Shown here one piece after another: positions 12,774 through 22,197 of a stretch of DNA of 64,000 nt. The DNA lies in the NCBI GenBank assembly GCA_963677575.1, contig OY782038.1:1916195-1980194 (forward strand), in the 5' to 3' direction. Position numbers and translations under genes: made by a program. Origin of the DNA: an uncultured Draconibacterium sp. GTDB lineage: Bacteria; Bacteroidota; Bacteroidia; Bacteroidales; Prolixibacteraceae. Numbering within the stretch: the stretch's first letter is position 1; each line of letters starts with the position of its first letter. The notes beneath the pieces were generated by a model. That model saw only the letters and a list, made by a program, of their open reading frames with translations, ran no database searches and was not told the origin of the DNA.

Positions 12774-12801
12774 TTCCAGAAATGCATGTATTATAAATAC
12801 G

Positions 12802-12831
12802 AAAAAAGGCCGACATTTGTCGACCTCTTTT
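12802..12831 (-). terminator. terminator-like hairpin after tRNA-like element A; also faces the convergent peroxidase gene
   Basis: AGGTCGAC-AAAT-GTCGGCCT followed by a T tract on the minus strand. Confidence 0.65.
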
Positions 12832-12832
12832 G

Positions 12833-12907
12833 TGGGGAGTACTGGATTCGAACCAGTGACCCTCCCGATGCAAATCGGGATGCTCTGAACCAATAAGCTA
12901 AAACCCC
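12833..12907 (-). ncRNA. tRNA-Val-derived tRNA-like element A (no canonical anticodon arm)
   Basis: D arm, variable loop, T arm and 3' acceptor strand match the neighbouring tRNA-Val; anticodon arm is TCCCGAT-TTGC-ATCGGGA. Confidence 0.8.
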
Positions 12908-13143
12908 TCTATCAATTTCAGAATTGCACTTCTACTTTTCCAGTTTTTAAGTTGCATTTCACGTTTAATTGCATCACTTTTTTCTCCAAAAGTTTCATAA
13001 TATTTTAACTCCCATGGTTTCCCGGTTGACGTAAATCCTTTGTTAGATGAGTTATGACGCTGCAAGCGTCCTTCAACATCACTTGTAGAACCAATATAGA
13101 ATTTATTTAGTTTCTCTGAATACAAAATATAACAGTAATACAT
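12898..13143 (-). CDS. small GIY-YIG nuclease, intact copy A (81 aa)
   Basis: YCYIL..YIG motif, conserved Arg (RLQRH) and Glu (KRE); ATG start. Confidence 0.9.
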   Translation of the reverse strand: MYYCYILYSEKLNKFYIGSTSDVEGRLQRHNSSNKGFTSTGKPWELKYYETFGEKSDAIKREMQLKNWKSRSAILKLIEGF

Positions 13144-13157
13144 GATATTAAAATACG

Positions 13158-13187
13158 AAAAAAGGCCGACATTTGTCGACCTTTTTT
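13158..13187 (-). terminator. terminator-like hairpin after element B
   Basis: AAGGTCGAC-AAAT-GTCGGCCTT followed by a T tract. Confidence 0.6.
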
Positions 13188-13188
13188 G

Positions 13189-13264
13189 TGGGGAGTACTG
13201 GATTCGAACCAGTGACCCTCCCGATACAAATCGGGATGATCTGAACCAACTAAGCTAAAACTCC
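13189..13264 (-). ncRNA. tRNA-like element B
   Basis: as element A; anticodon arm TCCCGAT-TTGT-ATCGGGA; one D-stem mismatch. Confidence 0.8.
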
Positions 13265-13500
13265 TCTATCAATTTCAGAATTGCACTTCTGCTTTTCCAT
13301 TTTTTAAGTTGCGCTTCGCGTTTTATTGCTTCACTTTTTTCCTCAAAAGCTTCATAATATTCTAACTTCCACGGTTTTCCAGTTGATGTAAATCCTCTAT
13401 TTGAATTATTATGTCGTTGTAAACGACCTTTCACGTCTCCCGTAAAACCAATATAGAATTTATCTAGTTTCTCTGAATACAGAATGTAACAGTAATACTT
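13255..13500 (-). CDS. GIY-YIG nuclease copy B, start codon mutated (ATG to AAG); possible pseudogene
   Basis: 66/81 aa identical to copy A; the only nearby in-frame start is TTG 13515 at the end of the hairpin T tract. Confidence 0.75.
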   Translation of the reverse strand, partial: KYYCYILYSEKLDKFYIGFTGDVKGRLQRHNNSNRGFTSTGKPWKLEYYEAFEEKSEAIKREAQLKKWKSRSAILKLIEEF

Positions 13501-13513
13501 GACATTAAAATAC

Positions 13514-13544
13514 AAAAAAAGGCCGACTTTTGTCGACCTTCTTT
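13514..13544 (-). terminator. terminator-like hairpin after element C
   Basis: AAGGTCGAC-AAAA-GTCGGCCTT followed by a T tract. Confidence 0.6.
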
Positions 13545-13545
13545 G

Positions 13546-13621
13546 TGGGGAGTACTGGATTCGAACCAGTGACCCTCCCGATACAAATCGGGATGATCTG
13601 AACCAACTAAGCTAAAACTCC
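13546..13621 (-). ncRNA. tRNA-like element C
   Basis: same sequence as element B. Confidence 0.8.
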
Positions 13622-13856
13622 TCTATCAATTTCAGAATTGCACTTCTGCTTTTCCATTTTTTAAGTTGCGCTTCGCGTTTTATTGCTTCACTTTTTTCCT
13701 CAAAAGCTTCATAATATTCTAACTTCCACGGTTTTCCAGTTGATGTAAATTCTCTATTGAATTATTATGTCGTTGTAAACGACCTTTCACGTCTCCCCTA
13801 GAATCAATATAGAATTTATCTAGTTTCTCTGAATACAGAATGTAACAGTAATACAT
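13612..13856 (-). pseudogene. GIY-YIG nuclease copy C, frameshifted
   Basis: 245 nt versus 246 nt; 1-nt deletion near 13757 relative to copy B; YIG changed to YID. Confidence 0.88.
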
Positions 13857-13869
13857 GACATTAAAATAC

Positions 13870-13900
13870 AAAAAAAGGCCGACTTTTGTCGACCTTCTTT
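13870..13900 (-). terminator. terminator-like hairpin after tRNA-Val copy 2
   Basis: same sequence as the hairpin at 13514-13544. Confidence 0.65.
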
Positions 13901-13901
13901 G

Positions 13902-13976
13902 TGGGGAGTACTGGATTCGAACCAGTGACCCCCTGGGTGTAAACCAGGTGCTCTGAACCAACTGAGCTAACCCCCC
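13902..13976 (-). tRNA. tRNA-Val(UAC), copy 2
   Basis: full cloverleaf: GGGGGGT/ACTCCCC acceptor, GCTC/GAGC D stem, CCTGG-TTTACAC-CCAGG anticodon arm, ACTGG-TTCGAAT-CCAGT T arm. Confidence 0.97.
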
Positions 13977-14013
13977 AATATTTAAAAAATCATTAACAGT
14001 AATGAAGCACATT

Positions 14014-14044
14014 AAAAAAGAGGTCAATCAAAATTAACCTCTTT
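14014..14044 (-). terminator. terminator-like hairpin after tRNA-Val copy 1
   Basis: AAAGAGGTTAAT..ATTGACCTCTTT followed by a T tract. Confidence 0.6.
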
Positions 14045-14046
14045 CG

Positions 14047-14121
14047 TGGGGAGTACTGGATTCGAACCAGTGACCCCCTGGGTGTAAACCAGGTGCTCTG
14101 AACCAACTGAGCTAACCCCCC
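14047..14121 (-). tRNA. tRNA-Val(UAC), copy 1
   Basis: identical 75-nt cloverleaf to copy 2. Confidence 0.97.
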
Positions 14122-22106: not shown

Positions 22107-22197
22107 TTTACGCAATGGGGTGTCCCGATAAAGCATCGGGACTGAGATTATACTCAAAGAACCTGATCCGGTTAGCACCGGCGTAGGGAGAGCGAAA
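22107..22197 (+). ncRNA. TPP riboswitch
   Basis: GGGGTG..CTGAGA..ATAC...GAACCTGATCCGGTTAGCACCGGCGTAGGGA aptamer core; boundaries approximate. Confidence 0.9.

Follow-up and report, generated by a model that had tools for sequence, protein, structure and literature searches.

A stop codon inside a tRNA-derived element: a probable by-product of the build of a tRNA-resident GIY-YIG nuclease cassette in Bacteroidota

Introduction

Ribonuclease P (RNase P) cleaves tRNA-like structures located at the 3' ends of other RNAs, for example the tRNA-like structure of turnip yellow mosaic virus (TYMV) and MALAT1/mascRNA. SegB, a free-standing GIY-YIG homing endonuclease, is encoded within the tRNA gene cluster of phages T4 and T6 (PMC13096335). 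The Ssn proteins are single-domain GIY-YIG nucleases acting on single-stranded DNA, with flanking NTS/SRM hairpin repeats (PMC11893778). Here, we compare with these systems a locus found in a stretch of 64,000 nucleotides (hereafter called the window) from an uncultured Draconibacterium sp. of the Bacteroidota (GenBank assembly GCA_963677575.1, contig OY782038.1, positions 1,916,195 to 1,980,194 of the forward strand). This locus is an array of three tandem copies of a compact tRNA-resident cassette, each made of a terminator, a gene encoding a single-domain nuclease of 81 amino acids and a duplicate of the adjacent tRNA gene that has been disabled.

In each copy, the open reading frame (ORF) of the nuclease ends with a TAG that belongs to the tRNA-like element. 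The original prediction, made from the sequence of the window, proposed that an RNase P-type cut at the 5' end of this element gives the nuclease a built-in auto-limitation. Such a cut would indeed delete the stop codon, but the comparison with related loci does not support the auto-limitation drawn from it. We consider, with a probability of roughly 0.7, that the overlap is a passive by-product of the tight packing of the ORF against a tRNA copy and not a conserved regulatory device.

Organization of the cassette array

The minus strand carries two tRNA-Val(TAC) genes followed by three tandem units of about 357 bp. The features are given below in the order in which they are met on this strand.

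14046..14121, minus: tRNA-Val(TAC) gene 1, intact (ARAGORN; Rfam tRNA, 71.2 bits)
13901..13976, minus: tRNA-Val(TAC) gene 2, intact, the cassette array beginning right behind it (ARAGORN; Rfam, 71.2 bits)
13870..13895, minus: intrinsic terminator-like hairpin AGGTCGAC-AAAA-GTCGGCCT and T tract, in the gap between tRNA-Val gene 2 and the first ORF (sequence)
13612..13856, minus: GIY-YIG ORF copy 3, a frameshifted pseudogene ending at TAG 13612-13614 (hidden Markov model matches 1-34 and 34-80, in two frames)
13545..13621, minus: tRNA-like element 3, a copy of tRNA-Val with the hairpin TCCCGATTTGTATCGGGA at 13576-13593 in place of the anticodon arm (ARAGORN, tRNA-???; Rfam, 32.9 bits)
13255..13515, minus: GIY-YIG ORF copy 2, 86 amino acids from an upstream TTG, ending at TAG 13255-13257 (Pfam PF01541, E=8.5e-19)
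13188..13264, minus: tRNA-like element 2, hairpin at 13219-13236 (ARAGORN; Rfam, 32.9 bits; fold; alignment)
12898..13143, minus: GIY-YIG ORF copy 1, 81 amino acids, intact, ATG start, ending at TAG 12898-12900 (Pfam PF01541, E=4.2e-19)
12832..12909, minus: tRNA-like element 1, hairpin TCCCGATTTGCATCGGGA at 12863-12880 (ARAGORN; Rfam, 46.6 bits; fold)
12802..12826, minus: terminator-like hairpin and T tract closing the array (sequence; stable stem in the fold of 12790-12930)

Each unit thus consists of a terminator-like hairpin and its T tract, a small ORF beginning about 12–14 nt past this tract, a tRNA-like element overlapping the end of the ORF, and the next terminator. The same terminator hairpin recurs behind every tRNA-like element of the window, and alignment finds it also in the 3' flank of tRNA-Val gene 2.

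Two other observations concern the array itself. The 69-nt spacer located between the two real tRNA-Val genes (13977-14045, minus strand) contains the terminator and then CATTACTGTTA, which is similar to the codons with which the nuclease ORF begins (ATGTATTACTGTTA). This spacer, of which L007 and L009, two of the related loci described below, have a counterpart, looks like a cassette whose ORF has been deleted. In the middle copy (ORF copy 2), the triplet at the canonical start position (13498-13500) reads AAG, while ATG is found in the other copies and in all relatives. As the ratio of nonsynonymous to synonymous substitutions (dN/dS) of this copy is still about 0.1, either the loss of the ATG is recent or the upstream TTG (13515) serves as start.

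Position of the stop codon in the window and in related loci

As noticed in the original prediction, all three ORFs end with ATA GAG G(A/G)G TTT TAG (GGG in copy 1, GAG in copy 2), with the caveats that the third ORF is frameshifted and that the second has AAG in place of ATG. The three TAG triplets correspond to U8-A9-G10 of the tRNA-like elements, the alignment to the Rfam family RF00005 placing them at model positions 8–10. The tRNA motif quoted in that prediction (TTAGCTYAGTTGG) is present, but copy 1 reads TTAGCTTATTGG, one base shorter in the D loop. The last codons of the ORF were correctly recognized as a 5' acceptor strand: according to the alignment, they are a decayed copy of that of tRNA-Val, leader included (ATATTGGGGGGTTAG in tRNA-Val versus ATAGAGGGGTTTTAG in the elements).

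A TAG at positions 8–10 is found in 34 of the 52 tRNA calls of this Draconibacterium genome, whereas only 23% of its long ORFs terminate with TAG. Since TAG is so common at this place in tRNAs, any ORF that enters a tRNA copy in the corresponding frame stops there; the stop is thus donated by whichever tRNA sequence the frame meets first. Furthermore, the copies of the window share their arrangement by descent, so that three copies amount to a single event. The following model for the build of the cassette can be drawn. The nuclease ORF, devoid of a stop codon of its own, would directly adjoin the tRNA duplicate at the latter's 5' end and would be read up to the first in-frame stop offered by the tRNA sequence. 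In the Draconibacterium lineage, the frame would meet the near-universal U8-A9-G10, i.e. TAG, and the last three codons (E-G/E-F) are relics of the leader and of the 5' acceptor strand of the tRNA. The ORF is probably transcribed by read-through from the tRNA promoter and past the tRNA terminator, because there is scarcely any space for a promoter.

A scan of species-representative genomes identified 78 loci across Bacteroidota, and the stop position was recorded per independent locus for 70 loci with a complete unit. The stop lies at tRNA positions 8–10 in 14 loci (TAG in 12, TAA in 2), in the D loop (GG TAG AGC) in 15, within the hairpin, mostly in its loop, in 24 and farther 3', in the region of the T arm, in three; it is located upstream of the element in seven loci, and the element was not recognized in 11. 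About three quarters of the loci therefore have their stop within the tRNA-derived element. Proteins of units with a stop in the hairpin loop end with a tail G-S-E/G-H-P-D/G, for which the D loop and the 5' arm of the hairpin provide the codons. Relative to the tRNA copy, the ORFs use all three reading frames, and in one locus (L048), the TAG at positions 8–10 is there but out of frame. In the protein tree, the stop at positions 8–10 is scattered, requiring 13 changes for 13 rows, which is no better than with shuffled labels. The original prediction had proposed to check whether the overlap is conserved in homologues and had named a variable stop position as contrary evidence; the position does vary among relatives.

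The comparison also bears on the acceptor stem. In the loci with a stop at positions 8–10, similarity to the 5' acceptor strand that the local tRNA carries is seen in the 7 nt preceding the stop, whose pairing with the 3' strand ranges from 1 to 6 of 7 positions, while this 3' strand stays the same as that of the neighbouring tRNA. The decay is therefore one-sided and uncompensated, indicating that the stem is not maintained. In the loci with a stop in the hairpin loop, the first 16 bases of the tRNA are undetectable in 17 out of 20 cases; a remnant that would support their origin from full tRNA copies by small indels was found in just 3 of the 20. As most of these units are devoid of the 5' acceptor strand and of the 5' part of the D stem, nothing upstream of their stop could serve as an RNase P-type substrate. 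The last tRNA-like element of L007 and of L009 is interrupted in its D loop by an insertion of about 95 nt, located immediately behind TAGCTCAGT, the ORF being intact and ending with the same TAG. Taken as a whole, a variable stop, a decayed stem, lost 5' parts and a split element do not agree with the maintenance of an RNase P site ahead of the stop.

The insertion itself (CCCGATAAAACAGAAATC...TTTTCGGCAT) is located at 2746-2845 of L009 and 3215-3312 of L007. Both loci also carry solo modules of about 111 nt, arranged in tandem without any ORF between them (2130-2480 of L009; 2240-2480 and 2830-2950 of L007), which consist of a tRNA-like element truncated in 5' and beginning at about position 11, the hairpin and the terminator.

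The tRNA-like elements are disabled copies of tRNA-Val

ARAGORN calls the three elements (12832-12909, 13188-13264 and 13545-13621) as tRNA-like but with an unassignable anticodon (tRNA-???, two-base 'anticodon'). They score 46.6, 32.9 and 32.9 bits, respectively, with the tRNA family of Rfam, i.e. above the gathering score of 29, the real tRNA-Val genes reaching 71.2. Alignment with both real tRNA-Val genes indicates that the T arm, the 3' acceptor strand and the discriminator are the same as in tRNA-Val and that the D arm is near-identical. The 17-nt anticodon stem-loop of tRNA-Val is replaced by TCCCGAT-TTG(C/T)-ATCGGGA, so that the fold shows a 7-bp stem and a 4-nt loop and no seven-base anticodon loop with an assignable anticodon.

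The elements likewise do not show a seven-pair acceptor stem. In the normal register, only 4–5 of the 7 positions pair; as stated in the original prediction, a 2-nt shift allows GAGG(A/G)GT to pair with ACTCCCC at 6 of the 7, this register implying a 4-nt linker. The minimum-energy fold of elements 2 and 3 is cloverleaf-like and built on this shifted acceptor stem. The modules made of the tRNA-like element and the terminator are 95–98% identical among the units of the window, whereas two of the ORFs differ at 48% of their synonymous sites. This module identity fits gene conversion from tRNA-Val, but also functional constraint on the RNA.

Two other identities were considered for the altered arm and rejected. 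The elements are not true tRNAs with an enlarged anticodon loop, such as frameshift suppressors, as relatives vary in the length and sequence of the loop and the acceptor stem is degenerate. Nor is the hairpin the native anticodon stem of another tRNA, such as Arg-UCU or Lys-UUU, as none of 46 genuine neighbouring tRNAs has TCCCGx at this place; tRNA-Lys was aligned to Rfam as well in this check.

Recurrence of the cassette across Bacteroidota

The related loci, window included, comprise 120 GIY-YIG units in 77 loci. Tandem arrays are common, with up to eight units, and in most units the ATG lies 5–20 nt behind a hairpin and T tract that trail a tRNA or a tRNA-like element. For 46 independent loci, the element was compared with the genuine neighbouring tRNA, which is tRNA-Val in 30 loci, tRNA-Arg in seven, tRNA-Lys in six and tRNA-Asp, tRNA-Ala and tRNA-Pro in one each. 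The median identity between the 28 nt that follow the hairpin and the 3' half of this tRNA is 100% (at least 26 of the 28 positions in 34 of the 46 loci), and the D region matches it at 10 or more of 12 positions in 37. As the tRNA part matches the local tRNA and the hairpin arm never does, the tRNA part has a local origin and the hairpin travels with the nuclease gene. Across the phylum, the TCCCG/CGGGA bases of the hairpin are kept and its sixth pair covaries (A-T, G-C, C-G, T-A), the sequence and the length of the loop being free.

At the orthologous folC-tRNA-Val site within the same genus, tRNA-Val is alone in about 10 genomes, followed by one cassette in two and by arrays in three, including the genome studied here. 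The copy number behind this tRNA-Val downstream of folC is thus 0, 1, 2 or 3, which corresponds to a presence/absence polymorphism. These data suggest that the cassette is a selfish or mobile unit, whose arrays would expand and contract through recombination between the repeated tRNA and terminator segments.

Three cassette-bearing contigs, all from metagenome bins, are labelled as Prosthecochloris (Chlorobiota; L054), Actinomyces (L066) and Comamonadaceae (L083). They are either mis-binned contigs of Bacteroidota or the result of a spread beyond this phylum.

The nuclease

Two ORFs of the window match Pfam PF01541 with 69.0 and 68.1 bits (cut-off 22.6). Their product corresponds to the GIY-YIG catalytic domain alone, which spans residues 1–71 of 81, and residues Y5, Y16, G18, R26, R29, H30, N31 and E62 are invariant in 44 homologues. 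This profile match and these core residues identify the ORFs as belonging to the GIY-YIG superfamily. The 155 close homologues come chiefly from Draconibacterium and other Prolixibacteraceae, and the nearest PDB sequences are UPF0213 proteins (1zg2, 1ywl) and SLX1, without any described Ssn among them.

The dN/dS ratio ranges from 0.04 to 0.13 within the Draconibacterium clade and from 0.08 to 0.13 between ORF copy 2 and its relatives. With a dS of 0.76 and a ratio of 0.13, the two copies of the window are old paralogues. Judged from these substitution patterns, the nuclease ORFs are under purifying selection.

An origin from a phage or a plasmid was considered and rejected: a tblastn search of the protein against phage and plasmid collections gave no match at E<=1e-6. 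The genome encodes a second GIY-YIG paralogue with 39% identity (G000:1876522-1876731, within the region G000:C1:1876417-1876842). This paralogue is not part of the cassette system, as neither a tRNA nor the hairpin adjoins it; the sequence located downstream (...cagtcgtacctccttcgaaatgac...) is similar to the repeat context of the dispersed hairpins described below.

Alternative explanations for the overlap

RNase P could be imagined to cut the 5' end of the element, 7–9 nt upstream of the TAG, leaving a stop-less mRNA on which ribosomes would stall and whose product would be tagged by transfer-messenger RNA, the nuclease thereby being limited. In the three copies of the window, the supposed cleavage site does precede the stop; moreover, 6 of 7 positions of the shifted acceptor stem pair, the T arm is intact, copies 2 and 3 are predicted to fold as cloverleaves, and most homologous loci have their stop inside the tRNA-derived element. 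Against this, the stop position is not conserved among homologues, the acceptor stem has decayed (1–6 of 7 pairs) while its 3' strand follows the local tRNA, the 5' acceptor strand is wholly lost in most units with a stop in the hairpin loop, and the ORFs of L007 and L009 keep their integrity and their TAG despite the split of the element. We therefore regard this scheme as improbable. There is a slim chance that non-stop control operates in the Draconibacterium lineage, and it would then not be a conserved feature of the family. The overlap might instead have been selected for another reason, such as a coupling of translation to the folding of the hairpin, for example if the nuclease binds the hairpin of its own mRNA and thereby represses its translation or termination, or a compactness needed for copying between tRNA repeats. 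The frequency of ORF ends in the tRNA-derived element, with 24 stops in or near the hairpin loop, would agree with this, and a hairpin whose first five stem bases are the same phylum-wide, whose sixth pair covaries and whose loop varies has the look expected of a protein recognition site. The single-domain Ssn proteins do recognize a hairpin by its sequence and structure (PMC11893778). However, the hairpin is just as well conserved in units that stop at positions 8–10, 22 nt ahead of it, and in the solo modules that lack any ORF, meaning that its conservation is independent of translation; selection of the overlap is thus unlikely. It is very improbable that the units are decaying junk, i.e. 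a segmental duplication of tRNA-Val with dead ORFs and a meaningless overlap. The frameshift of copy 3, the missing ATG of copy 2 and the inability of the tRNA-like elements to decode would point in this direction, but dN/dS is low (0.04–0.13), even between window copies that have diverged to a dS of 0.76, the GIY-YIG core residues are invariant and the layout recurs beside six tRNA types.

The reading of the overlap as a passive by-product of tight packing is thus preferred, although several data weigh against it. Stops inside the element exceed what would be expected from a cassette that lands beside a tRNA with a stop of its own, so that there may be a mechanistic or selective reason for their frequency. 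Given the predicted cloverleaf-like fold with its shifted stem in copies 2 and 3, cleavage by RNase P could occur there. In addition, functional constraint on the RNA is one of the two readings of the module identity reported above. A more general proposal, which we consider improbable, is that the lack of an own stop, with termination always falling inside the tRNA-derived element, is a control device, the accessibility of the stop being decided by tRNA-processing enzymes where the acceptor stem is kept and by the binding of the nuclease to the hairpin where the stop is in the loop. If this were true, a selfish nuclease carried on a tRNA transcript would be kept at a harmless level through non-stop decay or stalling at termination.

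The signature hairpin elsewhere in the genome

The pattern TCCCGA(0-12 nt)TCGGGA has 52 copies in the genome, the median being 1 for palindromes whose arms were permuted. Among 80 genomes of Bacteroidia, carriers of the nuclease clade have more copies than non-carriers (median 10.5 vs 4.5, Mann-Whitney p=6e-5), whereas a reversed control pattern does not differ between them; this association is confounded by the copies borne by the cassettes and by phylogeny, and little weight is given to it. The nuclease may recognize this hairpin.

One of the 52 hairpins (TCCCGATAAAGCATCGGGA) is located in the window at 22123-22141, between GGGGTG and CTGAGA, and looks like the P3 position of a thiamine pyrophosphate (TPP) riboswitch. 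A 20-nt form, TCCCGAT(GCTACG/CGTAGC)ATCGGGA, is found in a longer repeated context, ...aaaattcctgaaact[hairpin]caggctgtcgtacctcctcaaac..., for example at positions 1004448, 1089708, 1802360, 1829748, 2463408, 2501149 and 5120760 of G000:C1, and looks like a dispersed repeat that bears the same micro-hairpin. In eight related loci (L010, L013, L017, L032, L043, L053, L074 and L076), a second micro-hairpin of the TCCCGA..TCGGGA type replaces part of the T loop, 20–60 nt past the first one (GGTTC[TCCCGATGCATCGGGA]CTCACC in L010). From this sequence pattern, the hairpin seems to have been repeatedly inserted into loops of pseudo-tRNAs.

Comparison with known systems

No published description of the cassette layout was found in the literature searched, whose coverage is incomplete. 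The Pedo-repair RNA motif (RF01715), considered for a supposed location near GIY-YIG genes, was rejected as a counterpart: neither the array of the window nor 13 related loci gave an Rfam match to it at E<=1, and the motif as published, a junction of about 200 nt located upstream of radC operons, is unrelated.

Like the cassette, SegB is encoded by a GIY-YIG gene lying between tRNA genes without any intron or intein, in a tRNA region that undergoes tandem amplification, and its presence varies among related genomes. However, SegB is an enzyme of phages and has several domains, including a DNA-binding part, whereas the cassette protein is chromosomally encoded and reduced to the catalytic domain, no separate DNA-binding domain being found in its 81 amino acids. 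In addition, unlike SegB, each copy of the cassette is paired with a hairpin-bearing tRNA copy into which its ORF reads.

The cassette resembles TYMV RNA and mascRNA in having a tRNA-shaped element right at the 3' end of a longer transcript. These RNAs keep their fold and are demonstrably processed, whereas in the cassette the acceptor stem is decayed, many relatives lack the 5' part and processing is putative. As in tRNA-integrated genomic islands, an intact tRNA lies on one side and a duplicated 3' part of the tRNA on the other, but the cassette has no integrase, its insert is only about 360 bp, the tRNA is duplicated nearly whole and the anticodon arm of the duplicate is swapped.

The overlap of the stop codon is therefore no new mechanism in itself but a marker of how the cassette is built, i.e. 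by fusion of a minimal nuclease gene to a duplicate of a host tRNA gene. The anticodon arm of this duplicate is exchanged for a hairpin that is found phylum-wide, in association with at least six tRNA types and with a copy number that varies within a genus.

In protein size and hairpin, the cassette resembles Ssn. Both are small single-domain GIY-YIG proteins (roughly 80–95 amino acids, 81 here), and in both cases a hairpin with a conserved stem sequence and a free loop adjoins the gene and is scattered elsewhere in the genome as well (52 copies here). The hairpin is nevertheless not the Ssn repeat, as the published SRM consensus was found within 500 bp of the gene in none of the 77 loci, window array included. 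Furthermore, Ssn genes are not reported inside tRNA genes, the word tRNA being absent from the article that describes them (PMC11893778). If the cassette nuclease recognizes its hairpin as the Ssn proteins do, the cassette would be an integrase-free element able to colonize tRNA genes without destroying them, and a possible source of small site-specific nucleases.

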